From contig JAXDBP010000030.1 of assembly GCA_034678705.1 (NCBI GenBank), positions 50,162 through 114,161 of the forward strand: a stretch of DNA of 64,000 nt, written 5' to 3'. Each line of letters starts with the position of its first letter. The stretch's first letter is position 1. A program made the translations under genes and the position numbers. This stretch comes from Bellilinea sp. Lineage in GTDB: Bacteria; Chloroflexota; Anaerolineae; Anaerolineales; Anaerolineaceae. The notes beneath the pieces are model-generated. The model worked only from the letters and a program-made list of their open reading frames with translations. It was not told the DNA's origin and searched no databases. Positions 3-43,198 of the stretch are shown piece by piece.

Positions 3-2042
3 CGGCGCGACCTGTTCCTGCCCGAGCCGCTTGACGTGCTGGCGGTGCGCTCACGCGCCTCCGACCAGGCGGCGCTCTTCCGCCAGGTGGCCAGCCGCTA
101 CCCCGACCTGACCTACTACGATTGCGATCTGCCGCTCAGCCTGCACCACGCCGCGCGCCACGACACCTTCCCCCTGGCGCGCGTCCGCGTGCGCTGCGCC
201 GAGGACGGCGAAATCTTCGAGCTGCAGACGCTCGATTCGCCCTGGGAGATCGACGCCGAGCCAGCGCCGCTGCGCGTGCTGCAGCTCGAACCGGACTGCG
301 ACCCCAGCCACGCCCCGCCGCGGGCGCTGCTGGCCCGCTTCGAGCGCTGCTCCTACCGCCTGCCGCTCGACCCGCCGCGCCCGCTGCTGATCAACCTGCG
401 CGCGCTGCTCGTCCGGCACGACCCCGACCTGTTGCTGACCGCCTGGGGTGACACCTGGCTGCTGCCCATGCTGCTCGAGCTTTCCGAGCAGCACGGGCTG
501 CCCCTGCCGCTCAACCGTCACGAGGAACGGGAGGTTGGCCTGCGCGAGGAGCGCTCCTACTTTTCCTACGGGCAGATCGTCTTCCGCGGGCAGCAGGTGC
601 ACCTCTTCGGGCGGCTGCACATCGATCACCGCAACGCCATGCTGTGGGACGACTACGGCGTGGACGGCGTACTGGAGGCGGCGCGCGTCACCGGGCTGCC
701 GGTGCAGGTGGCGGCGCGCAACTCGCCCGGCGGTGGCATCTCGGCCATGCAGATCCGTACCGCGCTGCAGGCCGAACGTACCCCGGCCGGCGGCATCCTC
801 GTCCCCTGGCACAAGCAGCAGGTCGAGCGCGGTAAGACCGCCCTGGATCTGCTGCGTACCGACCAGGGCGGGATGATCTATCAGCCGATCGTCGGGCTGC
901 ACCGCGACGTCGGCGAGCTGGACTTCATCTCCATGTACCCCAGCATCATGGTGCACTGCAACATCTCGCCCGAAACGCGCCTGCCGCAGGGGCTGGGACC
1001 CTCCCCCGAGCCGCCCGGACTGATCCCACAGACGCTGGCCCCGCTGCTGGAGAAGCGGGTGGCGATCAAGCGCCGCCTGGCCGAACTGCCGGCCTGGCAC
1101 CCGCGCCGCAAGCATTACAAGGCCTTCGCCTCGGCCCACAAGTGGCTGCTGGTGACCTGCTTCGGCTACCTGGGCTACAAGAACGCCCGCTTTGGGCGCA
1201 TCGAGGCGCACGAGGCGGTCACCGGCTGCGGGCGCGAGGCGCTGCTGCGCGCCAAGGAGGCCGCCGAGGATGCCGGCTTCTGCGTGCTGCACATGTACGT
1301 CGACGGCATCTGGGTCGTCCGCCCGGACGCCAAACGCCCGGAGGACTTCCAGCCGCTGGTCGAGGAGATCACCCGCCGCACCGGCCTGCCGCTGGCGCTG
1401 GACGGCATCTACCGCTGGGTGGTCTTTCTGCCCTCGCGCCTGGATTCGCGCGTGCCGGTACCCAACCGTTATTTTGGCGTCTTCCAGGACGGCTCGCTCA
1501 AGGTGCGCGGGCTGGAGACCCGCCGGCGCGACACGCCGGCCTGGATCGGCGCGGTGCAGATGGAGATGATCGAGATGCTGGCAAGGGTGGAGGACGCCGA
1601 GCGGCTGCCCGATCAAATGCCGGCGCTGGTCGAGCTGCTGCGCGCCCGCCTGGCTGAGCTGCGCGCCGGGCGCGTCCCGCTGGAGGATTTGCTGGTGGCC
1701 CAGCGCCTGACCCGCGAGCCGGGCGAGTACAGCGTGCCCTCGCCGGCGGCGCGCGCCGCCGCTCAACTGGCCGCGGTTGGCAAGCACACCCGTCCCGGGC
1801 AGCGCGTGCGCTTTCTGCTGCTGCGCGGGCAGCCCGACGTGCACGCCTGGGACCTGCCCGAGCTGCCCAATCCGGAGCGGCTCGACCTGAGCCGCTACCG
1901 TGAGCTGCTCATGCGCGCCGCCAGCAGCGTCACCCAGCCGCTGGGCGTCGACCAGGCGATCCTGGAGGCCTGGGTGGAGGGGGCTGTGCCGGTGGCGCTG
2001 CTCGAACCAGCCGGGGCTAACCCGCCATGTATGCCACGCTGA
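3..2042 (+). CDS. Family B DNA polymerase homologue, 5' end cut by window edge
   Basis: Frame is open to the window start. Motif A DFISMYPSIM, motif B-like KWLLVTCFGYLGY and KVRGLETRRRD are present. Motif C reads YVDGIW instead of YxDTDS. Confidence 0.8.
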   Translation, partial: RRDLFLPEPLDVLAVRSRASDQAALFRQVASRYPDLTYYDCDLPLSLHHAARHDTFPLARVRVRCAEDGEIFELQTLDSPWEIDAEPAPLRVLQLEPDCDPSHAPPRALLARFERCSYRLPLDPPRPLLINLRALLVRHDPDLLLTAWGDTWLLPMLLELSEQHGLPLPLNRHEEREVGLREERSYFSYGQIVFRGQQVHLFGRLHIDHRNAMLWDDYGVDGVLEAARVTGLPVQVAARNSPGGGISAMQIRTALQAERTPAGGILVPWHKQQVERGKTALDLLRTDQGGMIYQPIVGLHRDVGELDFISMYPSIMVHCNISPETRLPQGLGPSPEPPGLIPQTLAPLLEKRVAIKRRLAELPAWHPRRKHYKAFASAHKWLLVTCFGYLGYKNARFGRIEAHEAVTGCGREALLRAKEAAEDAGFCVLHMYVDGIWVVRPDAKRPEDFQPLVEEITRRTGLPLALDGIYRWVVFLPSRLDSRVPVPNRYFGVFQDGSLKVRGLETRRRDTPAWIGAVQMEMIEMLARVEDAERLPDQMPALVELLRARLAELRAGRVPLEDLLVAQRLTREPGEYSVPSPAARAAAQLAAVGKHTRPGQRVRFLLLRGQPDVHAWDLPELPNPERLDLSRYRELLMRAASSVTQPLGVDQAILEAWVEGAVPVALLEPAGANPPCMPR

Positions 2043-4185: not shown

Positions 4186-6018
4186 CTATATTGCTGATAC
4201 AAAGCGCTCGCGTTTTACCCAACGTACGGTTCCCCGATAGTGCTCTCTTTGGTAGAACGGATGCCATTGACCCCCCGGGTCAATGGAGATCACGTCATTG
4301 CCCTTGATAATTAGAGTACAGGATACACCCCCAATTGATGTCTGTACGCTGCGCTCGGATATTGGGAACCTCATGCTAACCACATTGCCACTATCGACAG
4401 ATCCAACCTGCACGTAGCGTCCTTGAAAAACCGTCTCTCTGGGGATATTGTTTACAATGCATGATGCCTCTTCAGGTATTACCCATTCTGGGATGCGAAT
4501 CTCAACGTCGCAGGCCGTCTTCATCACCACGTCAATCCGGCCTTCGTATGGCACATAGCTATTCACGTCTGCCCAGGGCGAGGCGCGGTTGAGTAACAGA
4601 TGAATACTTAATTTCCCGTTGTTTAGCTCAAGCATATTTTCCAAAACGTGGAATATGGCTCGAGCTCCGTTGCCTGTACAACAACCAGAAATTATCGGCG
4701 ATTCCCCGTTCGCACAGTAGTCATTAGCTGACGCCCAACCGGCAAAACTACCAACAACTCGCTCAGATACGAGATCACCGTCCTCGCCTGGCCCAACCGG
4801 AGTGTTCGGGTAATTTTCGGCAAAGCGGTCGATCCAGTCCCCGCTTTTCATTTGCATTTCTGAGAATTGATTGCGCACGTAACGGTCCACATCATCCCAG
4901 TAATCACCCTGACCAAGTTTGCTGAGGTTGATCGCCATCATGATCATGTCCACTGTCGCACACGTCTCGCAGTCGATGTACGGGCGGTCATCGGGCCAAT
5001 CCTGGATGTATTCCGGAAAGAAGCCTACCAAAGGCCACCCGACTGAACGAGCATATTCATACCCCTTTTGAACAAAATCCGCAAATTCTTGATTGCGAGT
5101 TGCCAGGGCGTATTCGGAAAGGGCGTTCATTGCATTGCCGTTATGGTGAAAATGAAGCGCAGGCCCCTCATCCGATTCATGGCGAGCCAGGAAGTGTCCA
5201 TTGGCGTTAAATATTTGGGCGTGGTCCTTCAGGTAGCGGGCGAGTTCGTCGGCCAGCCTTCTTGCAGCGGATGAACCTGTGATTGAATAGACGCTAGTAA
5301 CGCCCTGGAGTGTCCACCCCTCCTGAGAGGCTTCCCACCCGATATTCATTTTTCCCTTGTCGTACGTCAGGTAACAATAATCTTTTTCATGGGACAATAT
5401 TCTGGAAAGGCGGCTGATAGCTTCTTCTGCAAATTCTTGCCAGCAAACACTCTTCTCCTGCCGGCTATTGTTGGCAGCCCAGCATATAAATCTTGCATCC
5501 GTGAAAGTGAGACCAATGGCATCTTTCTGGAAGTTATCTATGAAATATTTTCTCCAGCGCTGGTCGACCTGGGTGTTGATCGTACTACCTGTCACATAAC
5601 GCATTAGCGACAAGCCTTCACAGAATTTGGAATTTAACCCATCCGCCGTAAACATAACAGGAGGATTTCTTGCCGCGCTCCCATAAAAGTAAGTTATGCT
5701 ACTATCAACGGGGTTTGTACAGCGAGTAAGCGCGTTGATCGCCAATTTAGCGTTTTCATGGAGATCCAGTGTGTCCGGCACATCTGCTAAATAGCGTTTG
5801 CCCTCCGGCACGATTACTTGTGAGAGAGCATTTAGAGCATCAGTGCTGCATTTCGGTTGTGCTGTGACGGTTGGCGATGGCATCCTGGTTGCCGCTAACG
5901 TCGAGGTTGGCACGGGTGGTTGTGCGGGCAAGGCGCGTTCGCAGGCAGACGCAATCCCGGTGCCAAGCGCAACAACAACCATTTTTAGGAAGTTGCGGCG
6001 ATTTAATCCCTTGTGCAT
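4186..6018 (-). CDS. Tat-signal secreted protein, GH127/DUF1680-like (beta-L-arabinofuranosidase family) candidate
   Basis: N-terminus NRRNFLKMVVVALGTGIASAC. CETCA and GCCTGNG motifs resemble the Glu-x-Cys / Cys-Cys zinc site of GH127. Noticeably AT-richer than its flanks. Confidence 0.55.
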   Translation of the reverse strand: MHKGLNRRNFLKMVVVALGTGIASACERALPAQPPVPTSTLAATRMPSPTVTAQPKCSTDALNALSQVIVPEGKRYLADVPDTLDLHENAKLAINALTRCTNPVDSSITYFYGSAARNPPVMFTADGLNSKFCEGLSLMRYVTGSTINTQVDQRWRKYFIDNFQKDAIGLTFTDARFICWAANNSRQEKSVCWQEFAEEAISRLSRILSHEKDYCYLTYDKGKMNIGWEASQEGWTLQGVTSVYSITGSSAARRLADELARYLKDHAQIFNANGHFLARHESDEGPALHFHHNGNAMNALSEYALATRNQEFADFVQKGYEYARSVGWPLVGFFPEYIQDWPDDRPYIDCETCATVDMIMMAINLSKLGQGDYWDDVDRYVRNQFSEMQMKSGDWIDRFAENYPNTPVGPGEDGDLVSERVVGSFAGWASANDYCANGESPIISGCCTGNGARAIFHVLENMLELNNGKLSIHLLLNRASPWADVNSYVPYEGRIDVVMKTACDVEIRIPEWVIPEEASCIVNNIPRETVFQGRYVQVGSVDSGNVVSMRFPISERSVQTSIGGVSCTLIIKGNDVISIDPGGQWHPFYQREHYRGTVRWVKRERFVSAI

Positions 6019-8373: not shown

Positions 8374-9924
8374 TCAACTCATCCTTGGTACCTTGTCCTC
8401 CAGCACTGCCCGCAGGCCGTTTTGCGGCGTCCATTCCGCCTTCCAGATCAGCACGGACTGGTCCAGCCAGCCGGGAGCGAGCAGAGCCCGCCGGCCCGCT
8501 GACGGCCAGGCAAGGCTGACCTCCGCCCCGCTCAAGGCGCGAATCGCCCCGTCCGCGGTGATGGCATATTCCGCCTGCTCCTCGCCGGGTTCGCTGCGGA
8601 TGAGCAGGCTGCGGTCGGCGCAGATCTCCGCCAGCAGGCGCCTGCCGGAGGAATCGCCCGCCTGGAGCAGCTCGCGCAGTTCCTCCAGGCAGGTCAGGGT
8701 CCCGTCGCGCCAAAGCAGGGTGTAGCCCGGCACGGTTGCCTGCAGGCGCGCCGTGCTCAGGAACTGTCCACCCAGGTTCGTGTTGGAAAGTTCCAGGATG
8801 CGCTCGCTGCGCAGCTTGTAGCCGACCAGATAAAAATTGATGTCTGCCGTCCCGCCTGACTGTGCTGCCCAGCTGCTGCCGTTCCAAAAGCGCAGGAGAC
8901 CGCCCGGATAGGCGTTGTTATCGTCGCGCATCAGGTGGTAAAACTGAGATGCGCTGAGCGCACCGCTGCGTTGCAGCACCACCCAGTAGGGCGTGTTCGG
9001 TTGAATCACCGGCGGGGATGGCAGGATGAAGCGCACCCAGTGCAGGCCTCGGATGAGGCTGGCTGAGACGGACTGGCTCGACAGCGGCGCCGCGGTGTTC
9101 GGGTTGCCGGAGGCGTCCGGGCAGAGGGTGACCGTGACGCCGTCGCTGCAGCCGCCGGTCTGGTAAAGCCGGACCAGCACCTCGCCGCACTGCCAGGGGC
9201 CGTAACTGGTCTGGAAACTCTGCGCCAGCAGCGAGTCGCTGGTGTTATAGCGCCCGAGGGTTTGAGAGGTGTACGCGGGGCGGATATAGCCCTCGTAGCC
9301 GTCAAACAGGTGCGCATAGCGCCAGCCGATTGTCTCCCACCAGCCGCGGCAGACCAGCCGCAGGCGGATCTGCTCTGGCCTGCCGGGGGATGAAACAGGC
9401 AGGGTCGTGGTGCGGCCTGTCGGCAGGCTGGATGCAGCCAGCCAGGCGTCGCGGGCGGCTTCCGCCTGTTCCTCGACCAGCGAATTGAGGAACAGGACGC
9501 GCTCTTTCACCCCGTACAGACGGATGCTGCGAGCGTCCTCAGCCCAGGGGCTGAAGGTCTTCTCGCCCTGCCATTCGAGATGAGCCTGGCGCTGCCAGTA
9601 CTGCACCGCGACGCGGTTGGTCATCCGCCTCATATCCAGATTCCAGGCGAGCGCCCCATACTGCGCCTCGATGCGCGCCAGGTAGCCCCACCAGACTGGC
9701 TCAGCGGCGGCGTTGAAGATGCGCACACCGCAGCCGGCCAGCGTGGAGAGCCCGGCAGGAAATCCGCCGCGCGGTGGGCGGTCGGCGATTTCCGCGGTCA
9801 GGTCTGCCTGCAGCGGACCGCCTTCGGCGCACCAGCTCAACTTTTCCACGCGCAGATCCAGCCCCGGCTGGGGCAACCAGCCGCCGGATGCGCGCTCGAA
9901 CAGGATCGAAAATTGCTCGCTCAT
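8374..9924 (-). CDS. Hypothetical phage-module protein (possible tail/adsorption component)
   Basis: 516-aa ORF. ATGA overlap with the upstream ORF. No motif recognised. Confidence 0.6.
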   Translation of the reverse strand: MSEQFSILFERASGGWLPQPGLDLRVEKLSWCAEGGPLQADLTAEIADRPPRGGFPAGLSTLAGCGVRIFNAAAEPVWWGYLARIEAQYGALAWNLDMRRMTNRVAVQYWQRQAHLEWQGEKTFSPWAEDARSIRLYGVKERVLFLNSLVEEQAEAARDAWLAASSLPTGRTTTLPVSSPGRPEQIRLRLVCRGWWETIGWRYAHLFDGYEGYIRPAYTSQTLGRYNTSDSLLAQSFQTSYGPWQCGEVLVRLYQTGGCSDGVTVTLCPDASGNPNTAAPLSSQSVSASLIRGLHWVRFILPSPPVIQPNTPYWVVLQRSGALSASQFYHLMRDDNNAYPGGLLRFWNGSSWAAQSGGTADINFYLVGYKLRSERILELSNTNLGGQFLSTARLQATVPGYTLLWRDGTLTCLEELRELLQAGDSSGRRLLAEICADRSLLIRSEPGEEQAEYAITADGAIRALSGAEVSLAWPSAGRRALLAPGWLDQSVLIWKAEWTPQNGLRAVLEDKVPRMS

Positions 9925-11267
9925 GGCTGCTGGACGCGCGCTTTCTGGTAGATCATCACCTGAGCCAGCGCGTCGACCGGCGCGCCGGCGGCGGTTTCGA
10001 ACAGGAAGTAGATTCGGTTTTCACGCCCCGGCTGGAGTGTGATTGGCGAGCCGGTCAGCAGGTGCGAAACATGCTGACTGCCGCTGCTCGATTGCACAGC
10101 GTACACCCTGTTCACGCGCCCGTCGGATATCAGGGTATGGCCTGGCGCCAACCCGCCCAGCGGGCGCAGGTGCTGGAATGAGCTTGCCGGCAGCAGATGG
10201 ACGAAATCGATGCTCAGCGACTTGGTCCCGGCGGCGGTGCATTCAGCCAGTATATGCAGCTCCAGGGGCTGGTAAGCGCCCCCGCCCATTTCGTCCGGCG
10301 GCAGGCGCAGGGCGGGCAGCGGCGCCAGGTACCGGTCGGGAGCGAGCAGCGTCTGCGCGGTTCGCAGCAGTTCCCCGCCGCCGGGGTTGACAACGCTCCA
10401 GCGCAGGTAGATGCCCGCGGCGGGCAGGGCTGCCAGGCGCAGCAGCGGGCGGAAGAGGCAGGCGCGCATATACTGGAGCTGAGACGGGCTGAGCAGCCAT
10501 TTCCACAGCGAGACCTCGCTCTGGGAGGTCCATTCAGCCAAGGCCAAGCGGCCGGCGGAGCAGCTCGAGTCAGCCGGCTGGCTGCTGCCCGTGCAGCCGC
10601 TGCCCGCCGTGCCGGCCTCGCCTTCGAGGACATGCTCGAAGGCGCCGCCGGTGTCCTTCAGGTCGAAGCCGGCGGCGATGTAGCAATCCAGCAGGGCTGC
10701 CGGAAACTCTTGCGGCAGGATCAGGCGCACCTGCACCGGGCAAGGCAGTGTACCGGTGACTTCTGCCGGACCGGCGTCGACGAAGTTCTGGTGACCGCTG
10801 GTTCCATCGCAATGGTTGCGGATCGCCAGGCCGTTCCAGATTTCCGTCCCGTTCTGGTTGCTGAGATCTAGAGCGCGCAGGTTCTCTTCCCAGTAGTCCG
10901 CCCGGGTGAGATACAGGCGCAGGATCTGCACACTGCGCTTGCGGTCGTTCAAACCGCCGTCGAGCAGCTCGACTTTGCCGGCGACCACCCGCGCGGAGAG
11001 TGTCGTCATGCCGGCGGCGCTTTGAAGGAAGAGGTAGGCGTCGTTGATGCGCGCCTGGCTGAGCGAAATTTTTTCTCCCAGGCTTTGCACCAGCGTCTGG
11101 ATGCCCGACCCGCGCAGGGCTAGGTCGATCACTTCTTCGACCAGCCCGCCGGGGAGCGCCTCGAGGCGCTCCTTGCGGCGGGCGCCGACCACCGGCGGGC
11201 TGACCGAGCTACCGTGCAGGTGCAGGGCGTTCGCCCCGTCCTGATCGGCAAGATAGAGTCTCTCCAT
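9921..11267 (-). CDS. Hypothetical phage-module protein (possible tail/baseplate component)
   Basis: 448-aa ORF in the same operon-like array. No motif recognised. Confidence 0.6.
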   Translation of the reverse strand: MERLYLADQDGANALHLHGSSVSPPVVGARRKERLEALPGGLVEEVIDLALRGSGIQTLVQSLGEKISLSQARINDAYLFLQSAAGMTTLSARVVAGKVELLDGGLNDRKRSVQILRLYLTRADYWEENLRALDLSNQNGTEIWNGLAIRNHCDGTSGHQNFVDAGPAEVTGTLPCPVQVRLILPQEFPAALLDCYIAAGFDLKDTGGAFEHVLEGEAGTAGSGCTGSSQPADSSCSAGRLALAEWTSQSEVSLWKWLLSPSQLQYMRACLFRPLLRLAALPAAGIYLRWSVVNPGGGELLRTAQTLLAPDRYLAPLPALRLPPDEMGGGAYQPLELHILAECTAAGTKSLSIDFVHLLPASSFQHLRPLGGLAPGHTLISDGRVNRVYAVQSSSGSQHVSHLLTGSPITLQPGRENRIYFLFETAAGAPVDALAQVMIYQKARVQQP

Positions 11268-11310
11268 GAGTCATTCTCCTCTGGATCAATCGATCCGGTC
11301 AGGCCGCGCC

Positions 11311-11766
11311 TCAACCCAGGTCGCCGTCCAGGCGCCAGCCGGCGGGGAGTTCATCCTCTCCGGTAGGGAAGGGCGCATCCGCCGAGCTTTGCAGCTCGCT
11401 CGTCCGCAACCGAGCCAGCAGGGCCAGCCCGTACTGGAATTGCTTGAGCAGCCCGCTGCCGGCGGCGGCGTAGGCCTGGCAGACGCCTGGCTGGAAGTTG
11501 TACAGGTCGGCGCGGCCGGCTGCCAGCATGAAGAGCGCGTACGCCGTTGCGCCGCGCGCCAGCAGTGATGCCAGCCCGGCGGGTATATCGGTCGCGACGG
11601 CGCCGTCCAGGCTGGCGAGGCTCCAGGCCTGACCGGCTGCCTGGTTGAGGTCATCCAGCGCCTGGTGAATACATTCACCGATTTCGGCCTCGCTCCAGGT
11701 CAGGCCGGGGCTGTCCTTCAAAAGGCAGCGCACCCGGGCGGTGATGGAGGTCAGACTGGCGCTCAT
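11311..11766 (-). CDS. Hypothetical phage-module protein (possible head-tail adaptor)
   Basis: 151-aa ORF. ATGA overlap with the 63-aa ORF upstream. Confidence 0.5.
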   Translation of the reverse strand: MSASLTSITARVRCLLKDSPGLTWSEAEIGECIHQALDDLNQAAGQAWSLASLDGAVATDIPAGLASLLARGATAYALFMLAAGRADLYNFQPGVCQAYAAAGSGLLKQFQYGLALLARLRTSELQSSADAPFPTGEDELPAGWRLDGDLG

Positions 11767-11954
11767 GGCTGCACCGCCCGGGTGAGCTTCTGCCCGCTCT
11801 TGAAAAGGATCACGATGCGGCCGGGGTAGATCTTCCAGGCCAGCACCTGCGCGCGGGGCATGCCCAGCTCAGCACAGGCCTGGTCAAGCCAGACCTCGAC
11901 GGCAGGTTTGCACGCCCGGGCGCGGGAAAGTGGTTTGCGGCTGGATACGGACAT
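11763..11954 (-). CDS. Small hypothetical phage-module protein
   Basis: 63-aa ORF in register with the array. Confidence 0.4.
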   Translation of the reverse strand: MSVSSRKPLSRARACKPAVEVWLDQACAELGMPRAQVLAWKIYPGRIVILFKSGQKLTRAVQP

Positions 11955-11990
11955 TGGCGGACTTCCTTGCCGGGGGTGGGCTGGCGGGGC

Positions 11991-12200
11991 TCAACTGCCC
12001 CGCCGTCCGGCATCCTCGATGGCCACGCCGGTGCTGTAGACCGCCAGCGCGGCGATCAGCGCCTGGACGGCCTGCCAGCCGTCCATCTGTCCGTTGCAGT
12101 AGCCGGCGGCGATGGCCGCCAGCGCAGCCAGCAGCACCCAGAACTTGCGCGAGCGCAGCATCATCTTGATTTGCTGCCAGAAAGTCAGATTCTCATTCAT
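11991..12200 (-). CDS. Holin-like small membrane protein
   Basis: 69 aa with two hydrophobic helices (FWVLLAALAAIAAGY and AVQALIAALAVYSTGVAI) and a charged C-terminus. Overlaps the lysin stop by 8 nt. Confidence 0.45.
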   Translation of the reverse strand: MNENLTFWQQIKMMLRSRKFWVLLAALAAIAAGYCNGQMDGWQAVQALIAALAVYSTGVAIEDAGRRGS

Positions 12201-13026
12201 TTTGGTTCTCCTCTACTTGGGGATGGATTTCGGGGTGAGCCAGCCAGAGCCTTTTGAGCATCTCCGACGGCTCGAGGGTCATACCGGGCGATTCGGGCGG
12301 ATCAGGGCGGCACCAGGCGCGCAGCTGCGCCAGGCCGCCGTTGAAGAAGTTCAAATCCAGCGGCGAGCGCGCCCCTGGCAGGATGAATTTCTCCGCGCTG
12401 AACTGCCAGAAGTGCCAGCCGCGGCAGTCCTCCGGCAGAGCCGGGGAGCTGATCCTGGGGAAATGCTGGCGCAACTGTTCCCAACTGCAGCTCACCCGCC
12501 CGCTGCCGTATGGGTAATGCGCCAGCCAGAGATCCCACTGCGGAAGCCAGGCGAGCATCGCCCTGGCGTAGTCGCGCACGAAGCTGGCGCGGGTGTAGAT
12601 CAGCACCGGCAGGCCGCTGACCGCCTGGATTTTGGCGGCAACGGTTTTGGCGCTCTGGCTGATGCGGTTGGGCGGGATGAAGCGGGTGACACGCCTGGCT
12701 TGCCATTCGTTCCAATCCTGCCAGTACTGCTCGACGTCGACCGCGGCGAAGGCTACCTGCTTGCCTTCGATCGCCGCCAGGAAGTTTTCAGCCTGGCGCC
12801 GGTCGTCGTGGGTCGGGTCGCACCAGTGATAGGCGCCGCAGATCAGCCCGGCGGAGAGCGCGCCCTGCAGGTGCTGCTCGAAGCGCGGGTCGCGCATGGA
12901 CGCTCCCTGCGCAGCTTTGAGGATGGCAAAGGCGACTCCACCGGCCTTGAGCTGAGCCCAGTCCAGGCGTATGTCCCAGCGGCTGGCGTCGATTCCAAGG
13001 GTGTAGGTCATCGGGGTGTTGTCCAT
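12193..13026 (-). CDS. GH25 family lysozyme/muramidase (endolysin)
   Basis: GIDASRWD..DWAQLKAGGVAFAILKAAQG...GAYHW...VDVEQ pattern typical of GH25. Confidence 0.8.
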   Translation of the reverse strand: MDNTPMTYTLGIDASRWDIRLDWAQLKAGGVAFAILKAAQGASMRDPRFEQHLQGALSAGLICGAYHWCDPTHDDRRQAENFLAAIEGKQVAFAAVDVEQYWQDWNEWQARRVTRFIPPNRISQSAKTVAAKIQAVSGLPVLIYTRASFVRDYARAMLAWLPQWDLWLAHYPYGSGRVSCSWEQLRQHFPRISSPALPEDCRGWHFWQFSAEKFILPGARSPLDLNFFNGGLAQLRAWCRPDPPESPGMTLEPSEMLKRLWLAHPEIHPQVEENQNE

Positions 13027-13046
13027 TTTGTCCTTTTGCCTTCTTT

Positions 13047-13120
13047 GTCATTCCGAGCGAAGCGAGGAATCTTTCCCTCCGTCCTTGAAGATTTCTCCTC
13101 GCTACGCTCGTCGAAATGAC
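13047..13120. repeat. REP/MITE-like imperfect hairpin repeat (GTCATTCCGAGCGAAGCGAGGAATC family)
   Basis: Near-identical to the copies at 33070-33144 and 33215-33289. The two halves are imperfectly inverted relative to each other. Confidence 0.8.
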
Positions 13121-13141
13121 ATCTTGGGACAGGAATGGCAG

Positions 13142-15031
13142 CTAAACCACATTCGCCTTGTAAAGCGGGCGGTAGTCGGCGACGAAGACGCTCAGCCAGT
13201 GGCGCACCTTCATACGCACCTCGTCGTTGCTGAACAGCGCCCCGCTGGTCTCTGAGTCGGAGATGAAGATCTCCGGCAGCAGACCGAAGCGCTCGGCGAC
13301 GATGATCGCCGGCGCCAGGCGCGGATCGGCGACCGCGGCCCAGTCGCTGGCGTCGCTGAACTCCGGACAGGTGATCACATCACCCATCTCGCCGCGCTGC
13401 AGGTTCTCGGAGAAGATGTTGGCCTCGCGCTCGAAGGACGGGTAGAGGATGCGCATGGCGGTCAGGCGCAGCGAGCGCGGCACGACGCAGTAACGCGCGT
13501 CCAGCGCCAGCCTGGGCGCCGTCCCGCCGCTGGCCAGCAGCATCGGCTGCTCGTAGATCGCCTGGCTGGCGGCCTCCCAGGACTCAGACGAGAGCGCCGC
13601 GCTGCCCAGGTTGGCGTGGTGGCTGGCGTCGAAGACGTTGTAGCTGTCCGCCATCTGCGGGCCGGCGCCGCTGTTGGCGGTGAAGACCGAGCCGACCAGC
13701 GCCGAGATGCGCCGCAGCGCCGCCGAGGCCAGCTTGTAGGGGTACTGGCGCAGCTTGTGGGTCTCGTCGCGCTCGAACATCTCCAGCGTCAGGCCGATGT
13801 AGCCGCCGTACTTGGTCCAGCCGGCGGTTTCGGCCGAGTCCTTGAGCTCCAGCTCGGTGTAGGGCGCGCCCTCATCCACGCTGGGCAGCACGGTCACCTC
13901 GCCGACCAGCACGCCGCTGATGGTGTGCAGGCTGGTGAAGTGCTCGACCGAGACGATCGGCTCCCACCAGCGGTAGCCGCTGCGCCCGAGCTCCTGCCAG
14001 CCCATCACGATCAGCTTGTTGAGCGCGTTTTTAAGCAGGCCGGGCAGGGTGGCGCTGGTGGCGAGCGCCGCCCGCTCGGGGTAGTAGCCGCCGTAGAAGC
14101 TGGTGTCGCCGGTCAGCATGGTGTACAGCTCGCGGATGCCGGAGAGGCGCGCGGTCTTGACCGACTTCAGGCCCTCCGGGCGTTCGGCGCCGAGCAGGTC
14201 GTAGGCCGCCGCGGTGAGCTGGTCCTCGCTGGAGACCATGCCGCTGATCCGCCCGGGTCCCTGCACGACCGCGCCGCCGGTCAACCGGGCGGCCAGATCG
14301 CGCCCGTCCTGAAGGGCGGCCCGCAACTCGGCCGGTTCGAAGATCCGCCCGCTGAACTGGGCGCGGATGCGCTCTGCCAGCGGCGCGGGCAGGTGCGCAG
14401 CCGTCAGGCTCTGCTCGAGCAGGCAGGCGCACATCTCCGCGCGCAGGGCGCGGGCCTTTTCCAGCTCGTCTGCGGCGGATTCGGGCGCGGCGGCAGCCGG
14501 CAATGAATTGGTTTGGGTTGCTTCGTCCATGGTGGGTTTACCTCCTTTGATCGTTTGTCTGGTTTGCTGATTGAGCGCGCGCAGGAAGGCCCCGCCGCGC
14601 GCAGGATTCATGACCACGTCCACCGAGAGCACGCGCAGGATCTTGCTCACCCTGCGCCCGCTGGCGGAGAAGAGAATATCGGCCGAGAAACCGACGTCCG
14701 GCCGGACGTCGCTGTTCAGCGCCGCCTGGGCCAGTTGATTGAGAATAGGTCCGCCCGGGCCGACCGCCTTGAGCGTCAGGCGGATGCCCTGGCGGGCGTC
14801 ATCCCAGACCGGCGAGTGCAGCACGCCGGCCAGGTCGCGCACGGAGTGACCCCAGAGGGAGTGGTCCAGGTAACATTCGCGACCGTCCCACAGCGCCAGC
14901 GACTCGCGCAGTACCTCGGCGGGAAAATCCCAGCCGTTGCCGGCGCCGGCGCTGATCGCCAGGATCTCGAACTTGCCGCCCTGCGGCGATGAGGAAAGGA
15001 GCAGGCGCTCCTGGATGGTTTCGTCTGACAT
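13142..15031 (-). CDS. Prohead protease (HK97 family-like) fused to major capsid protein
   Basis: N-terminus YLDHSLWGHSV ... GFSADILF resembles the His/Ser of a prohead protease. The C-terminal roughly 400 aa look capsid-like. Position after the portal gene fits. Confidence 0.65.
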   Translation of the reverse strand: MSDETIQERLLLSSSPQGGKFEILAISAGAGNGWDFPAEVLRESLALWDGRECYLDHSLWGHSVRDLAGVLHSPVWDDARQGIRLTLKAVGPGGPILNQLAQAALNSDVRPDVGFSADILFSASGRRVSKILRVLSVDVVMNPARGGAFLRALNQQTRQTIKGGKPTMDEATQTNSLPAAAAPESAADELEKARALRAEMCACLLEQSLTAAHLPAPLAERIRAQFSGRIFEPAELRAALQDGRDLAARLTGGAVVQGPGRISGMVSSEDQLTAAAYDLLGAERPEGLKSVKTARLSGIRELYTMLTGDTSFYGGYYPERAALATSATLPGLLKNALNKLIVMGWQELGRSGYRWWEPIVSVEHFTSLHTISGVLVGEVTVLPSVDEGAPYTELELKDSAETAGWTKYGGYIGLTLEMFERDETHKLRQYPYKLASAALRRISALVGSVFTANSGAGPQMADSYNVFDASHHANLGSAALSSESWEAASQAIYEQPMLLASGGTAPRLALDARYCVVPRSLRLTAMRILYPSFEREANIFSENLQRGEMGDVITCPEFSDASDWAAVADPRLAPAIIVAERFGLLPEIFISDSETSGALFSNDEVRMKVRHWLSVFVADYRPLYKANVV

Positions 15032-15041
15032 GGCTGCCTCC

Positions 15042-16415
15042 TCAGGATGGCTGGGTTCCCAACGGATGGGGCGGCTGATCGCCGGAACGCCCGCGGGCGA
15101 GCAGGTCGTTCACGTCGGCAACCTCGCCGAAGAAGCGGTAGGTCAGGCGCAGCATCTCGGCGTCGTCGATCAGCCCGCGGTCGCGCAGCTGCGCCAGCAC
15201 GCCGATGATGTGCCGTGCCGCCAGCCCCAATTGCAGGTTGTCGCGCGAGGATAGATCCGCGCCGTGCACTTCCAAGCGCGCCTGCGCATCGACGCGCCCG
15301 CGCCCGTTGACCGCGTGCTCGGCCAGCGCCCGCCGGTTGACGACCGCCCTCAGCACGTCGGCCAGCAGCCAGAGGAAGTAGGCCTGGCGCTGCTCGAAGC
15401 GGCGGTAGGTCGGCCCGCCGGCGGCCTCGGCGGTGGTGCGCGTGGCCGATTCCGGCTCGGCCAGGAAGTGCAATGGCAGCCCGGCGCCGGCAGCGATCAT
15501 CTTCTTCAGCGCCAGCCCGTCGGTGTTGGCCTCGTCCGATTCCAGGCGCGGATGGATCACCTCCCAGCTCTCGCTCTCGTCGGTCACCAGGATCGAGCCG
15601 GGCGAGGGCGGCGCGGCGTTGAGCTTTTGCTGGCGCGCCAGGCGCTCGCTCTCGCTGGTGAAGCGCGCCCTGACCACGTAGAGGAAGGCGGTGCGGAATC
15701 GGTTCAGCCTGGCGCGGTCTTCCAGCCAATTAGCGTAGCGGCTCAGCCAGCGCAGCACAGGGGCCAGGTCCGGCTCGCCCCACAGCGCGCCAGCCGGGCG
15801 GTTGACCGCGTAGTGCAGCACGACCGTCGGAAAGCCGCCCTCGGGGCCGGGCGCGTCGCTCTCGGCGTCATAGACCGGCCAGGGCCGCGGCTGGGGCTGT
15901 TCCAGCGTGGGGCGCGGCAATACGGCAGTTTCCTGATCCACATCGTTCGGGCGGTGCTGAATTTCGGCGACCTCGCTGGCCGGCACTGCGCGTACGTAGC
16001 TCATCCCGGCCGAGTCGGTCGAGAGCAGTACGAACAGGTTTCCGCTGCGCGAAAGCTCGTCGCACCACTCGCAGATGCGCACCGCCATCCGGTTGAGCGG
16101 GTGATTCCAGAAGGCCTCTAGAAAGCGCGCGGTCGGCGCGTGCTTGCAGCGCAGGCTGACCCCGCTACCGACCACATACTGGGTGGTCAGCTCGATCAGC
16201 CGGCGCGCCAGCGGATTCAGCCGCCAGGCCTCCAGCGACTGCTCCAGCAGCGTCTGACGGTCGGGGATCAGCCGGTCACGTGGGCCGCCGTTCAGGGCGC
16301 GGCTGCCGAGCAGAAAGGTCGCGTCGGTTTCCTCGGCCAGGCCCGCGCGCACCTGCCGGCGGATTTCGCCGGCGAACAGGCGCCTGACCAGTCCGGATAA
16401 GAGCGAAGATGGCAT
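15042..16415 (-). CDS. Phage portal protein
   Basis: 457 aa. RLNPLARRLIELTTQYVVGSGV block. Lies between the terminase and capsid genes. Confidence 0.75.
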   Translation of the reverse strand: MPSSLLSGLVRRLFAGEIRRQVRAGLAEETDATFLLGSRALNGGPRDRLIPDRQTLLEQSLEAWRLNPLARRLIELTTQYVVGSGVSLRCKHAPTARFLEAFWNHPLNRMAVRICEWCDELSRSGNLFVLLSTDSAGMSYVRAVPASEVAEIQHRPNDVDQETAVLPRPTLEQPQPRPWPVYDAESDAPGPEGGFPTVVLHYAVNRPAGALWGEPDLAPVLRWLSRYANWLEDRARLNRFRTAFLYVVRARFTSESERLARQQKLNAAPPSPGSILVTDESESWEVIHPRLESDEANTDGLALKKMIAAGAGLPLHFLAEPESATRTTAEAAGGPTYRRFEQRQAYFLWLLADVLRAVVNRRALAEHAVNGRGRVDAQARLEVHGADLSSRDNLQLGLAARHIIGVLAQLRDRGLIDDAEMLRLTYRFFGEVADVNDLLARGRSGDQPPHPLGTQPS

Positions 16416-16452
16416 GTCACCTCCTTGGGTGGAATGGGATGAGTAGGTCGGC

Positions 16453-17865
16453 TTAAAAGCCGCTGTCCAGCTCCCTGAGCGGGTCGCGCGTCCCGTCCGG
16501 CACGCCCCAGCGCATGCGCTTCTCGGGTCCGGGCAGGATCTGATACTGGCAGTTCCTCAACTGAGCCTGGAAGGGCTCCGACAGGGGAGCGGTCTCGCCG
16601 GCCGGTTCCTTCCAGCGCCCGCTGTCGACGACCGCCAGGAAATCCCAGCCGAGCTTGCTCTTGCTGGCGGCGCTGAACTGGAAGGCGATCACCCGCCCGG
16701 GCATGGCGCGGCTGAGAAAGGCCGCCAGCCCTGCGCCGACGCCGGTGGCATCCACTACCAGTTGACGCGCCTGCCAGGCTTCGGCCAGCGCCAGCAGTTC
16801 AGCGTACAGCCGGTCGTGCTTCTGGCCGGTCCACTGGCGGCGGTGGACGCAGCGGTAGGTCGGAGCGCGCAGCAGCGGATCGCTCAGCGTGGTCAGGTCG
16901 ACCTCGACGACGGTCAGCGCGGTCGCGTCCCGCCCCGGATTGCGCAGTTGCGCGGCTTCGCCGGGAGAGCCCTCCTCGGCGCCCTCGTCCGCGCCGGCCA
17001 CGTCCAGCAGCATGGCATAGAGCCGCCCCGGCAGCGGCGCATCCAGCGCGGCGTGGCTGCCGCGCATCAGCGCGCGGCGCGCGGGCGGGAACATGCCGCC
17101 GTCGCCGTCGATCTCCTCGCTGTAGAACTGGGTGCGGATCAGCGGGTGGCTGCGGCCCAGGCGGGCGACCTGCGCGGCGACGAAGCGCCGGTAGGCCGGA
17201 ACCTCAGCCGCCACCCGGTCAGCGTCGGCGACGAAGACGCGCTGCAGGCCGTCATGACGCTGGGCTTCGCGGGCGGCGCGCAGCTCGCGCGCAAGCAGCG
17301 TCTGGCTGGTCCAGGCCGTGCCCCAGAAGACGCGCGTGGCATTGGTCGAGGCGGCCATCGGCGCAATTTCCTTCTCGTATTTTTCGATCTGGATGTCCTG
17401 CGCCTCATCGACCGAAAGCAGCAGGTTGGCCGTCGCGCCGACGATGTTGGCCTCCGGCGATCCGCTCAGGAAGAAGATGCGCGCCTTGCCGACGCGGTAG
17501 ATGTAGCCCGACTCCTTCTGCCAGAGGCCGCGGGTGAGCAGGTTGCGCTCCAGCACGCGCTGCAGCCGGCGCATGGCGTTCAGCGACTGCGGCTTCCAGG
17601 TTGGGGATATCTTGACCATCTCGGCGTCCAGCTCCTGGCTGACCGCCAGCAGGTAGGTTTCGATCTGAGCCTGCAGCTCGTTCTTACCGGACTGGCGCGG
17701 GAACATGACCACGAAGGTCAACCCCTGCTTGAGCAGGGCAGAGCGCACCAGCGCGCGCATCACCTCGGCCTGGTAGCTGCGCAGCCGGATGCCCGAGCCG
17801 TAGCGGGCGAAGGCGACCGGGTCGGCGAGCAGGGACTTCTGGATTTCGAGCGGGATCGTGTTCAT
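16453..17865 (-). CDS. Terminase large subunit
   Basis: Walker A-like FPRQSGKNE, Walker B LLLSVDEAQ, C-terminal nuclease-like LLDVAG / VVDATGVG. Confidence 0.8.
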   Translation of the reverse strand: MNTIPLEIQKSLLADPVAFARYGSGIRLRSYQAEVMRALVRSALLKQGLTFVVMFPRQSGKNELQAQIETYLLAVSQELDAEMVKISPTWKPQSLNAMRRLQRVLERNLLTRGLWQKESGYIYRVGKARIFFLSGSPEANIVGATANLLLSVDEAQDIQIEKYEKEIAPMAASTNATRVFWGTAWTSQTLLARELRAAREAQRHDGLQRVFVADADRVAAEVPAYRRFVAAQVARLGRSHPLIRTQFYSEEIDGDGGMFPPARRALMRGSHAALDAPLPGRLYAMLLDVAGADEGAEEGSPGEAAQLRNPGRDATALTVVEVDLTTLSDPLLRAPTYRCVHRRQWTGQKHDRLYAELLALAEAWQARQLVVDATGVGAGLAAFLSRAMPGRVIAFQFSAASKSKLGWDFLAVVDSGRWKEPAGETAPLSEPFQAQLRNCQYQILPGPEKRMRWGVPDGTRDPLRELDSGF

Positions 17866-17982
17866 CGCGGCATGGTGCGGATGGGGGCGGGCGGCGCAGG
17901 GGTGCCGGGCGCGGTGAGGGAAATGCGGCGCGCGGAGGGCTGGGAGATGGCCGTGCCGCCGCCCGCCCAGGGGGGAACCGGG

Positions 17983-18321
17983 TCAGCCCAGCCCGCTGGT
18001 GAGGATGGACTGGATGCCCTTCTCTTTCAGCTCCGCGGCAATCTCGCGGATCGCGTCGCGGGTGTCGCCCTCCGGCGCGGCGCTCTCGCCCAGCTCGCGG
18101 CTGGCCTTGAGGATGCGCGCCAGGTGGTCGCTCGCCTCCGAAACGGCTTTGAGCGTCCTGAGCAGCTCGTCGAGCGAATCGGCCTGGTCGACCCTGGCCT
18201 TCGCCTCGCGGATCAGCAGGCGTACCAGGCGGATCTCCTGGCTGAGCGGGTTTTTCGCCTCGATCGATTTGCGCCGGGGGGTTTTGGGCTGGGCGGGGGT
18301 GGGGTGGGGTTCAGGGGGCAT
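17983..18321 (-). CDS. Small coiled-coil protein (possible small terminase or scaffold)
   Basis: Start taken at MPPEPHP (ATG 18321). Position upstream of TerL. No motif recognised. Confidence 0.4.
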   Translation of the reverse strand: MPPEPHPTPAQPKTPRRKSIEAKNPLSQEIRLVRLLIREAKARVDQADSLDELLRTLKAVSEASDHLARILKASRELGESAAPEGDTRDAIREIAAELKEKGIQSILTSGLG

Positions 18322-18521
18322 GGCTTGACACCGGTGATATAATAGAAAATATGTTCTGTTTTCAGCGTCAGTATGCCACACACTCGGGCTGCAAGACAAC
18401 CTGCAGTTATCTGCAACCCGATCAGCAGGTACTGGAAGACACAGGGTTGGACCGCGGTCTCTTCAAATCAGGTACAATTAGAGGCGCATGGTGTAAATTA
18501 GCTTTAATAACGGAGGTTCTC

Positions 18522-24299: not shown

Positions 24300-26591
24300 G
24301 TGCCGCTGTTGTGGCTGGCGTCGGCCTTCCTGGCCGGCGTCGGATTGGGGTCTGTTTTTGATTTGCCCGCCTGGGCTTGGGGCGGGCTGTGCGCGCTGTC
24401 GATCGGGCTGGCGGTGCTGGAAGGGCGATTCTGGCGCAGATCGCCCGCCGAGCAGGCCTTGCGCCGCTACAGCCCACTGGCGCTGGGCGTGCTGCTGGCC
24501 GGTCTATTCGCAGGGGCGCTGCGCTTTACCCTGGCGCAGCCGCATTTCAACGCCGAGCACCTGGCCTGGTACAACAATCTGGGCCGGCTGAAGCTCTCCG
24601 GCTGGGTCTGCGGCGATCCTGACCGCAGGGAGAGCACGCTGCTGCTGCGCGTCTGCGCCGAGCGCATCCAGGTTCCCGGCAGCGCCGAAATCGACGCGCG
24701 AGGCAGGGCCGTGCTGATGCTCCCGCCAGGCGGCGACTGGCGCTACGGCGACCGGTTGGAGCTGTGGGGCCAGCCGACCACGCCGCCCGCTGATGATGAA
24801 TTTTCCTATCGCGATTACCTTTCCCGGCGCGGCATTTACAGCCTGTTCTCTTACCCGCAGGTGACCCGGCAAAGCGGTGTCTCGGGTAGCCCGGTGCTCA
24901 GGGCGATCTACGCCCTGCGCAGGAGCGCCTACATCACGCTCAACCGCATCTTCCCGCAGCCCGAGGCGGCCCTGCTGGCGGGCATCCTGCTTGGGCTGGA
25001 GCGCGACCTGCCGGAGAGCCTCGAGCGCGCCTTCCAGGACACCGGCACGGCTCACATCATCGCCATTTCAGGATTCAATATGTCCGTGCTGAGCGGGCTG
25101 TTCATCGCCCTCTTCAGCCGCTTTTTCCGGCGCGGCTGGGCCGCGCTGCTGGCCGCCGCGGCGGTGGGATTTTACACCGTGCTGGTGGGTGCTAACCCGG
25201 CGGTGGTTCGCGCGGCGCTGATGAGCAGCCTGGCCCTCTTCGGCCGACTGATCGGGCGTTCCTCCGCCGGGATGACCCCGCTGGCCTTCAGCGCGGCGGT
25301 GATGTGCCTGTTCGACCCGCGCCTGCCCTGGGACGTCAGCTTTAAGCTCTCCTTCACCGCAACGCTCGGGCTGGTGCTCTACGCCGAGCCGCTGCAGGCC
25401 GCCTTCGAGGATTGGGCCGCCCGCCGCTGGAATCCGACGCTCGCCCGCCGGCTGGCCGGCCCGCTCAGCGAGTATGTCCTGTTCACCCTGGCCGCCCAGG
25501 TGACCACCCTGCCGGTCACGCTGGTGCACTTCGGTCGGCTGTCGCTCGCTACCCTGCTGGCCAATCCGCTCATTCTGCCGGCACAGCCGCTGGTGATGAT
25601 CCTCGGCGGGATCGCGTTGATCACCGGACTGATCATCCCGCCCGCCGGGCAGGCGCTGGGCTGGCTGGCCTGGCCGCTGATCGCCTACACCATCCGCGCG
25701 GTTGAGCTGCTGGCGCGCATCCCTTCCGCGGCGTTGTCGGTCGGGCGGCTGGACGGCGGGTTCGCGCTGGGCTATTACGCGCTGTTGTTCGCCCTGACGC
25801 TGCCCAATAAGCCGTTTGCTGCGCTGCGGAAGAAACTGAAACCAGCCGCGCTGCTCACCGGGCTGGCGCTGCTGACTGTAGTCCTGTGGAGCGCCGCCCT
25901 GCGCCGCCCGGACGGACGTCTGCATCTGGTTTTACTGGATTCACCCGCAGGCCAGGCGGCGCTGGTCACCACGCCCGGCGGCAACCGTATATTGATCGGC
26001 GGCGCACCGGGAGGAAATGCGCTGGCGGGTCAACTCGGACGCGAAATCGGCCCGCTGCGCCGCGGCCTGGATGCGCTGGTCATTCCGTACGCCAGCGCCA
26101 GCCCGCTGGAGGGGCTGCCCGAGGTGGTCGAGCGGATGCCCGTTGCGGGAGTGTATTGGGCCATACCGCCGCCGGAGAAGCGCGCCGCCGAACGCCTGCG
26201 CGGGCTGCTGGCAGAGCGGCGCATCCCGGAGGCAGTCCTTGCCGGGAACGGCGCGCTGCGCCTGGACGACGGTGTGACTCTGCGCGTCCTAGCTGCCAAT
26301 AAGGAGGGCGCTGCGCTGAAGCTGGAGTACGGCGGGCTGCGCGTCTACTGGCCGACTGGCGCGCCGCCGGAGGACCTGCCCGACCCGGGCGGCAGCATCC
26401 TGCTGCTGAGCGAGGCAGGCTGGAAGGAAACCAAGCTAGAGGAGTGGCAGCGCGCCGGCCCGCAGGTGGTGGTCGCCTTTGGCCTGCCTCCTGGAGAGGT
26501 CCCGCCTGGCTGGCTGAGCACGGCTCACAACGGCCGGATAGAGATTGATTCGGATGGAAATACTATGACCATCCTGGCTGAAAAGCCTTAG
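24300..26591 (+). CDS. comEC: ComEC/Rec2 DNA internalisation-related competence protein
   Basis: 763-aa polytopic protein with a TGTAHIIAISGFNMSVL block and a C-terminal MBL-like domain. Confidence 0.85.
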   Translation: MPLLWLASAFLAGVGLGSVFDLPAWAWGGLCALSIGLAVLEGRFWRRSPAEQALRRYSPLALGVLLAGLFAGALRFTLAQPHFNAEHLAWYNNLGRLKLSGWVCGDPDRRESTLLLRVCAERIQVPGSAEIDARGRAVLMLPPGGDWRYGDRLELWGQPTTPPADDEFSYRDYLSRRGIYSLFSYPQVTRQSGVSGSPVLRAIYALRRSAYITLNRIFPQPEAALLAGILLGLERDLPESLERAFQDTGTAHIIAISGFNMSVLSGLFIALFSRFFRRGWAALLAAAAVGFYTVLVGANPAVVRAALMSSLALFGRLIGRSSAGMTPLAFSAAVMCLFDPRLPWDVSFKLSFTATLGLVLYAEPLQAAFEDWAARRWNPTLARRLAGPLSEYVLFTLAAQVTTLPVTLVHFGRLSLATLLANPLILPAQPLVMILGGIALITGLIIPPAGQALGWLAWPLIAYTIRAVELLARIPSAALSVGRLDGGFALGYYALLFALTLPNKPFAALRKKLKPAALLTGLALLTVVLWSAALRRPDGRLHLVLLDSPAGQAALVTTPGGNRILIGGAPGGNALAGQLGREIGPLRRGLDALVIPYASASPLEGLPEVVERMPVAGVYWAIPPPEKRAAERLRGLLAERRIPEAVLAGNGALRLDDGVTLRVLAANKEGAALKLEYGGLRVYWPTGAPPEDLPDPGGSILLLSEAGWKETKLEEWQRAGPQVVVAFGLPPGEVPPGWLSTAHNGRIEIDSDGNTMTILAEKP

Positions 26592-27008
26592 GATTTTAAT
26601 GGGGGATAGGTGGCGGTTATTGTGCCGGCTTAGCCCGGCTTTACCTGCCCGAAAACCAACACTTCCCTGTGCAAAGCTGGAGACCTACACGCCTGACAAT
26701 ATGTAAAAAGAATTTCAAGTCATTGGCGCTGCCCGCATCATTATCATCTCGGGGTAGAACGCGATTGTTTTCATCCGCATTCTGTTCGGTTCTTTAACGG
26801 TTTGAACCTTTACGATCCAAGGAAATGCACAAAATGAAGATAGAATTTTATTTCGGAAAGTAGTTGCCGAGAAGTAAGGGCGTCTACGCGTAAAACGTCT
26901 GCCACATGTTTCTATCCATAAAATTATTTATATTAAATTTCTTTTCGACAAGTACTATAGGTCTTAGGCAGGAATGTTTGCTCTTTAATTCCCAAGGAGA
27001 ATTAATAT

Positions 27009-30986: not shown

Positions 30987-30988
30987 TC

Positions 30989-43169: not shown

Positions 43170-43198
43170 GGTACGTACAAATCCGGAACGCACCCTAC
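43166..43198. repeat. GTAG-type REP hairpin (variant)
   Basis: GTAGGGTACG...CGCACCCTAC inverted arms. Confidence 0.6.

Follow-up and report, generated by a model that had tools for sequence, protein, structure and literature searches.

A compact cluster of ten genes of viral type lies on the minus strand at positions 8374-18321 of a 64,000-nt stretch of contig JAXDBP010000030.1 from Bellilinea sp., referred to below as the window and numbered from its first nucleotide. We modestly favour the view that this element is a chromosomally fixed, domesticated and SOS-wired operon for a DNA-packaging, gene transfer agent (GTA)-type particle, for which we infer LexA binding, particle formation, the content of the packaged DNA and its delivery to cells. 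A preliminary description of the same DNA had proposed a GTA-like or domesticated element alongside a satellite remnant and a decaying prophage. Domestication is supported by the presence of the cluster throughout the family, its co-divergence with host genes, the constraint on its genes, its ameliorated GC content at third codon positions (GC3), the lack of mobility genes and an operator of the LexA type, whereas the GTA function itself is a prediction.

Distribution, architectures and inheritance with the host

An open reading frame (ORF) check of the window confirmed ten intact ORFs, all on the minus strand, and reproduced the coordinates and tight packing first described, including the overlaps between g5 and g6 (8 nt), g7 and g8 (4 nt) and g9 and g10 (4 nt); the other gaps are short. 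Both borders consist of ordinary cellular genes, as had been proposed: gene calls and Pfam searches on near-identical or related contigs identified OsmC, SnoaL and an MBL-fold hydrolase on the g10 side, and GNAT, AlaX and Ham1 on the g1 side. No integrase, repressor or replication gene was found in the element, no tRNA lies within 20 kb of it (those of the window are located only at 41.5 and 48.1 kb), and att-like direct repeats across its borders gave chance-level matches only in the window. These scans bear out the earlier statement that an integrase, a repressor, replication genes, a tape measure, a flanking tRNA and att repeats are missing. Since genes for replication, lysogeny and excision are absent, an autonomous phage is excluded. 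The base composition, initially described as host-like, is so for GC3 (0.81-0.90 in the element, the same as in neighbouring host genes), but not for overall GC content, which reaches 67.8% in the element against 59.8% in the rest of the window.

Relatives were collected in scans covering one genome per species. A single-sequence scan returned full-length relatives of the capsid protein (57-87% identity) in 66 genomes, and a profile scan returned capsid relatives in at least 253 species-representative genomes, with identities down to ~50%; the 80 best-scoring loci of the profile scan all belong to Anaerolineaceae/Anaerolineales. These loci include six cultured strains: Bellilinea caldifistulae, Ornatilinea apprima, Longilinea arvoryzae, Thermanaerothrix solaris, Levilinea saccharolytica and Flexilinea flocculi. 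Nearly all carrier genomes hold a single copy; the loci L052 and L056 are two copies of the cluster in one metagenome-assembled genome (MAG), MFD04716.bin.2.60. A look-up of the exact capsid protein sequence returned no record.

The relatives fall into two architectures of ~10-11 kb, both with cellular genes on either side. Type A, that of the window, runs g1, large terminase (TerL), portal, capsid, GH25 muramidase and holin candidate in either order, g8, g9 and g10. In type B, the order is g1, TerL, GH25, portal, capsid and holin; beyond these come a g8 homologue that contains an insertion and some six small, unrelated genes, for which PHROG and Pfam searches returned an SH3_3 domain in one protein and otherwise weak matches only. 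In the annotated loci of relatives, cellular genes adjoin the cluster directly, and neither an integrase nor a regulator was found. In a tree of TerL, portal and capsid, type B is monophyletic and the loci bearing g9 and g10 include the deepest branch, so that this tail-tip (Dit/Tal) pair is probably ancestral.

Gene order is shuffled in the more divergent members. In three of them (L240, OY969578.1; L226; L248, Flexilinea flocculi TC1), neither TerL nor portal was found within 8 kb of the capsid gene, and the cluster seems to have been either divided among loci under separate regulation or lost in part. In the rumen MAG L225, a gene for a 1264-aa collagen-repeat/fibritin-like fibre (11413-15207 of that locus) and a gene for an M23+SH3 peptidase (17026-17616) lie inside the cluster, in which no GH25 gene was found. 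A PD40/Ig protein (c59), encoded 3′ of g10 in some relatives, was considered as part of the element and judged to be a cellular surface protein.

The element has diverged in step with its hosts. Pairwise identities of AlaX correlate with those of capsid, portal and TerL (r = 0.94, 0.89 and 0.93, respectively; 13 genomes), and the correlation persists in genomes where the element is not adjacent to AlaX. For LexA against capsid, a Mantel test gave r = 0.92 (p = 2e-4; 14 genomes), and r = 0.75 once close pairs were removed. In a comparison of the window with two close relatives, the ratio of nonsynonymous to synonymous substitutions (dN/dS) ranged from about 0.08 to 0.44 over the ten genes; flanking host genes gave 0.11-0.30, and the dS of element genes, up to ~1, was comparable to that of the adjacent host genes. 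This comparison, which had been suggested as a check for purifying selection, revealed such selection in every gene, at a level like that of the flanks. The genomic neighbourhood is partly conserved: GNAT-AlaX adjoins g1 in the window and in five relatives (L001, L069, L010, L055 and L065); compared with the window, L055 and L065 have the element, GNAT and AlaX inverted as one block. Type B loci likewise have flanking clusters in common. Taken together, domestication and inheritance with the host are very probable.

Predicted functions of the ten genes

The first four genes encode packaging and head functions. The g1 gene (17983-18321) encodes a 112-aa protein whose N-terminus is basic and whose body is helical. 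Its ATG start agrees with the gene calls of relatives, a longer ORF with a TTG start extending to 18399. It matched no family in Pfam, PHROGs or NCBIfam, is conserved in both architectures (dN/dS 0.32) and, occupying the position usual for a small terminase, is a TerS candidate. The g2 gene (16453-17865) encodes TerL, with an ATPase and an RNaseH-like nuclease domain. It matches phrog_5909 (E = 1.7e-7) and Terminase_6C (PF17289; E = 2.7e-4), in the latter case with 21.4 bits, just under the Pfam cut-off of 22.6. In 45 loci, its Walker A (PRQSGKN), Walker B (VDEAQ) and coupling (WGTAW) motifs and the Asp motifs of the nuclease are invariant, and its dN/dS is 0.14. The portal gene g3 (15042-16415; dN/dS 0.16-0.21) is supported by phrog_10963 (E = 6e-32) and by a weak PF05136 match; both labels had already been assigned by the preliminary description.

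The capsid gene g4 (13142-15031; dN/dS 0.11-0.16) encodes a fusion in three parts: a protease-like N-terminal domain (residues 1-~150), then a scaffold-like linker and finally the major capsid protein (MCP) domain (~320-629), which has the HK97 fold. The capsid half of the protease-capsid fusion proposed earlier is well founded (PF25209, E = 1.6e-26; also phrog_133 and phrog_4523), but residues 1-180 have no match in Pfam, nor in the PDB by profile search. The protease label therefore remains deduced from the invariant D56-H57 and G114-F-S116-A-D118 motifs and from distant matches to two protease/MCP fusion models, NF045540 and NF045541, the latter with E = 2.6e-31 but well short of the model's own cut-off. 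With these motifs, the N-terminus is compatible with a His/Ser prohead protease; a PARGG motif is invariant as well. By capsid, the closest sequenced phage is Microcystis phage Mae-JY22, at 28% identity. IMG/VR contains short fragments of the element, called viral, and one more distant phage-like contig. In this 16.6-kb contig (L098, IMG/VR 3300018082_000245), numerous small ORFs precede TerL, portal and capsid genes with 41-49% identity to their counterparts in the element, and it probably comes from a genuine phage whose head module is related.

The lysis genes follow the capsid gene. The g5 product (12193-13026) is a GH25 muramidase (PF01183, E = 2.8e-28; endolysin PHROGs), as first labelled, annotated as an endolysin and devoid of a signal peptide; among relatives, its gene lies either 3′ of the capsid gene or between TerL and portal. 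The 69-aa g6 product (11991-12200) is a holin candidate in line with its earlier description as holin-like: its hydropathy profile reveals two hydrophobic segments. It has no family match in Pfam, PHROGs or NCBIfam and is conserved at 55-93% identity in ~50 loci (dN/dS 0.08-0.25). The 63-aa g7 product (11763-11954; dN/dS 0.35-0.5) was detected in close relatives only (gene calls of L067, L069 and L100), has no match in the same three databases and is left unassigned. The intergenic region between capsid and GH25 genes contains a hairpin resembling a repetitive extragenic palindrome (13047-13120), which is a host repeat, as had been reported: its arm occurs three times in the window against 0 expected, and its folding z-score is -4.2. 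The two further copies of the arm, GTCATTCCGAGCGAAGCGAGGAATC, are located at 33070-33094 and 33215-33239. The hairpin could act as an attenuator or as an RNA stabiliser.

The last three genes had been described as motif-less, together with g7, and the module as lacking recognisable tail genes. The first statement holds for g7, and the second is not sustained. The g8 product (11311-11766; 151 aa) is helical and is probably the head-to-tail (portal) adaptor, since, among PDB entries, its profile best matches the 'gp50 portal adaptor' chain 9gb5_I, with a marginal E value of 0.03; its homologues are present in both architectures (dN/dS 0.23-0.30). For g9 (9921-11267; 448 aa) and g10 (8374-9924; 516 aa), AlphaFold2 models were built from alignments of database homologues, with pLDDT values of 70 and 84, respectively. 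For the g9 model, Foldseek returned Dit proteins from Bxb1, Douge, lactococcal p2 and SPP1, with probabilities of 0.85-0.99; the TM-scores are low because of inserted beta-sandwich domains. The g10 model matched chains of the phi812 baseplate, the tail tips of Bxb1 and HFTV1 and numerous virion or 'minor tail' proteins of phages, and residues 227-359 form a choice-of-anchor-R jelly-roll domain (NF041539, NCBIfam), the sole match of g8-g10 in Pfam, PHROGs or NCBIfam. Both tail-tip genes are constrained (dN/dS 0.20-0.29).

The decisive evidence for the nature of this pair came from L334, a 49-kb metagenomic phage contig. There, a g9 homologue (BLASTP E = 7e-36) lies directly 3′ of a gene for a 1106-aa tape-measure protein (TMP; PF10145), and the next gene is homologous to g10 (hhalign probability 100%, E = 2e-68). 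This gene order and homology identify g9 and g10 as the pair at the Dit and Tal positions of a siphovirus lineage, and L334 preserves this pair in its ancestral context. Such phage relatives surfaced only through exhaustive HMMER searches, in which the g9-like family comprised 1152 clusters, mostly of 440-470 aa; tblastn with g9 and g10 against 50,697 phage records gave no match. The complete order at 6684-16478 of L334 is TMP, g9 homologue, g10 homologue and a gene for a 1117-aa protein; the head genes of this contig show no relationship to the element's own.

Putative promoter and operator upstream of g1

A single putative promoter of the sigma-70 type precedes g1 at 18370-18399 (minus strand), with a -35 box TTGTCT (18399-18394), an 18-nt spacer and a -10 box CATACT (18375-18370). 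It was recognised by its conservation in an alignment of the 220 nt 5′ of g1 from 16 type A loci; a simple promoter and terminator scan stayed at background level and did not call it. In the relatives, TTGACA forms the -35 box, with TTGCAC repeats flanking it, and the -10 box is of the TAtaCT type. Across these 16 loci the promoter is conserved, whereas the g1 proteins are just ~40-45% identical between clades.

Between the -10 box and g1, 21-38 nt 5′ of the ATG, lies the palindrome ACAGAACATATTTTCTAT (18342-18359, minus strand), which resembles the LexA/Cheo box GAAC-N4-GTTC. Its consensus, ATAGAAC-N4-nTTCTAT, is found upstream of g1 in type A and type B loci alike. The window copy matches 7 of the 8 core positions, and L003 and L060 match all 8. 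At least 7/8 matches occur at the g1 promoter in 38 of 47 loci of both types, where the background is 0.23 per 600 bp. The operator was recovered in 61 of 101 non-redundant loci, and nearly all of the 85 occurrences of its 16-mer in 4 Mb of fetched sequence lie at the cluster promoter. The three loci with a lone capsid gene (L240, L226 and L248) carry it directly 5′ of that gene.

The host lexA genes provide the point of comparison. Of 80 Anaerolineales genomes, 72 have ACAGAAC-N4-GTTCGTG in the region upstream of lexA, and two lexA promoters (L164, 11809-11900 of that locus, minus strand, and L254) carry a box of the cluster type, TAGAACATTTATTCTG, beside the canonical one, CAGAACGGATGTTCTG. 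The cluster operator may thus be a variant of the LexA (Cheo-type) box of this lineage, with extended symmetric flanks, and control of the operon by LexA would be the most economical reading of these boxes. The LexA proteins encoded at these lexA loci keep the catalytic Ser and Lys. The LexA-like gene of L164 was also considered as a dedicated paralogous repressor, a role rejected on the grounds that its catalytic Ser/Lys pair is kept and its A-S cleavage site is common to other Anaerolineae LexA proteins. On balance, we consider SOS control of the operon moderately likely.

Proposed working, alternatives and neighbouring genes

In the working that we propose, a repressor, most likely LexA, would occupy the palindromic operator and block the single promoter 5′ of g1 until DNA damage derepresses it. 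The TerS candidate and TerL would then drive DNA through the portal and into HK97-fold capsids, whose assembly and maturation would fall to the fusion of protease-like, scaffold and MCP domains, and g8 would close the portal as an adaptor. The Dit-like protein and the Tal-position protein with its lectin-like domain would form a tip for contact with the host cell, which either docks straight on the connector as a stubby tail or assembles on tube and tape-measure proteins encoded elsewhere. Finally, the holin candidate and the muramidase would lyse the producer and release the particles. Because genes for excision, replication and an own repressor are lacking, the packaged DNA is expected to be host chromosome.

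Several observations weigh against this reading. No tube, tape-measure, terminator or stopper genes were found in the element or in the rest of the 64-kb window, whose large ORFs include no TMP-like protein, so that how Dit and Tal would join the head is a problem: siphoviruses encode stopper, terminator, tube, chaperones and tape measure between adaptor and Dit, where the element has a gap of merely 43 nt between g8 and g9. The distal genes differ wholly between the two types, with no homology by hhalign between g9/g10 of type A and c8/c13/c11/c12 of type B, which implies at least one exchange of modules, a phage-like behaviour. Position is not universal either: in OY969938.1 and JBFMBX01, GNAT-AlaX stands without the element, which is located elsewhere, and the synteny put forward as a sign of domestication thus holds within subclades but not across the family. 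Head genes are frameshifted in a minority of loci, mostly in MAGs of one series, with isolate names beginning MFD, to which the MAG with two copies also belongs. Several MAGs of this series (among its loci are L049, L053, L054, L064 and L066) carry frameshifts in TerL, portal or capsid, which we suspect to be assembly indel errors and not real pseudogenes, and L003, L025 and L045 carry one frameshift each. Of 68 operator boxes, 16 have in the second half-site the G that lexA boxes conserve, whereas 25 have a T and 27 an A there, and a repressor other than LexA is possible. Lastly, the co-divergence correlations draw on two single-gene host markers only, and on non-independent pairs.

The alternative that survives best is an exaptation comparable to the PBSX-like defective phages, in which particles would package DNA that is not productively delivered, and would serve to kill competitors, to release extracellular DNA or public goods in filaments and biofilms, or as altruistic suicide upon DNA damage or infection. 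The anatomy of the cluster and its SOS-type operator fit such a use equally well, the lysis genes are among the best conserved (dN/dS 0.08 for the holin candidate), and DNA injection is doubtful without tube and tape measure. However, the strict conservation of the portal and of the TerL ATPase and nuclease motifs indicates that DNA packaging matters, the constraint on the tail-tip genes, one of them lectin-like, suggests that binding to target cells matters, and PADLOC returned no match to defence families for the element. We consider this use unlikely. PBSX-type prophages of Bacillus are SOS-inducible, conserved within their lineage, DNA-packaging and released by lysis of the producer; the element is likewise conserved in its lineage and is predicted to share the other features. 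The contractile tail, the Xre repressor and the ~28-kb size of PBSX are all absent from it.

A phage satellite forming its own capsids, or a remnant of one, would make heads and a tail tip, take tube and tape measure from a helper phage and spread horizontally. In line with this, capsid, packaging and connector genes occur without tube or tape measure, as in capsid-forming satellites; IMG/VR labels fragments of the element viral; and its location differs among some genomes and its distal modules were swapped. The likeness to cf-PICI-like satellites extends to the ~10-kb size and the presence of own terminase, portal, protease/capsid and adaptor genes. By contrast, the annotated loci lack the integrase, att site, regulator and replication genes of such satellites, and the element has a tail tip and a lysis cassette of its own. 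The absence of integrase and att site, combined with co-divergence with the host, is unlike satellite behaviour. Phage satellites are normally patchy within species, whereas the element is inherited with its hosts across a family, is a single copy in nearly all carriers, co-diverges with AlaX and LexA, has ameliorated GC3 and keeps one operator family-wide. The satellite remnant of the preliminary description is therefore a weak candidate, and we judge this origin improbable. As for a decaying, non-functional prophage remnant persisting by chance, which the small size, the many missing phage functions and the frameshifts in a few relatives could evoke, it is hardly tenable: the window and most relatives have intact copies of all ten genes, which are constrained at dS up to ~1; the cluster is maintained at capsid identities as low as ~50% over at least 253 species genomes; and the catalytic motifs are invariant, with promoter and operator conserved.

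The GTA-type operon that we favour shares with the GTAs of the Rhodobacter capsulatus (RcGTA) type, including that of Caulobacter, a vertically inherited chromosomal cluster of head, packaging and tail genes under purifying selection and free of replication and integration genes. It is also predicted to resemble them in a link to host regulators of the DNA-damage response and in lysis-dependent release. Such regulators control RcGTA-type GTAs (PMC6363796, PMC9632790, PMC5721377, PMC10883770): LexA acts on RcGTA via CckA (PMC6363796), and the GTA of Caulobacter, an aid to DNA repair, is repressed by RogA, a LexA-like protein (PMC9632790). RcGTA genes are located at several loci (PMC5026251), a layout reminiscent of the relatives whose capsid gene has its own operator copy and no adjacent TerL or portal. 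The differences are equally clear. Unlike in RcGTA, the capsid is fused to a protease-like domain, no tube, tape-measure or megatron-like gene is present, the lysis genes lie inside the operon, and the operator sits directly at the promoter, RcGTA being controlled via a CtrA/GafA cascade; the element also belongs to a different phylum, Chloroflexota. Siphovirus structural modules resemble it in the two genes after the TMP of L334, which are homologous to g9 and g10, but it lacks stopper, terminator, tube, chaperone, TMP, early, lysogeny and replication genes, and the relatives of its head and of its tail tip are found in different phages. Mae-JY22, which has a comparable capsid fusion, encodes the capsid followed by connectors, TMP and proteins of 253 and then 655 aa.

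The NCBIfam scan returned no match to gene-transfer-agent models, its capsid-family matches being prohead protease/MCP fusion models only, so that the element would constitute an independent GTA lineage. The literature searched contained no report of a GTA or comparable element in Chloroflexi/Anaerolineae. To our knowledge, few independent GTA lineages have been described, none of them in Chloroflexota. The protease-like fusion of the capsid, the internal lysis cassette, the tail tip without a tube and the SOS-type operator at the promoter are unusual features. More tentatively, the element may be an undescribed, independently domesticated GTA, the first in Chloroflexota, which is switched on directly by LexA cleavage upon DNA damage, is tube-less with Dit and Tal mounted on the connector, and moves chromosomal DNA between filamentous anaerobes. 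Anaerolineaceae abound in anaerobic digesters, sediments and wastewater, and a family-wide, SOS-triggered DNA-packaging particle would, if confirmed, represent a new route of gene exchange or programmed lysis in these communities. The retention of head, adaptor, Dit and Tal without tube or tape measure raises the structural puzzle of a siphovirus tip that works without a tail, and an operator kept in front of a lone capsid gene would be a clean case of host regulatory capture of viral genes. Since several carriers are cultured type strains, the hypothesis is directly testable.

The other large ORFs of the window are cellular and encode a subtilase, Nuo subunits, a radical SAM protein, a family-B DNA polymerase and ComEC. 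The family-B DNA polymerase gene lies outside the element near the left edge (36-2042, plus strand); in the relative L100, a gene of this family (12011-14260 of that locus) adjoins DUF8156 and a small unknown gene. A 610-aa ORF at 4186-6018 (minus strand; ~51% GC) has no Pfam match; tblastn detected it in none of 66 related loci, and the close relative L100 has no equivalent at that position. The gene for the ComEC competence channel (PF03772 and DUF4131; 24300-26591, plus strand) is located ~6 kb from the element, possibly by coincidence; RcGTA recipients depend on competence machinery. Finally, two low-GC islands, at 27000-31000 and 43000-46000, have 37-52% GC against a window mean of 61% and may be horizontally acquired segments.

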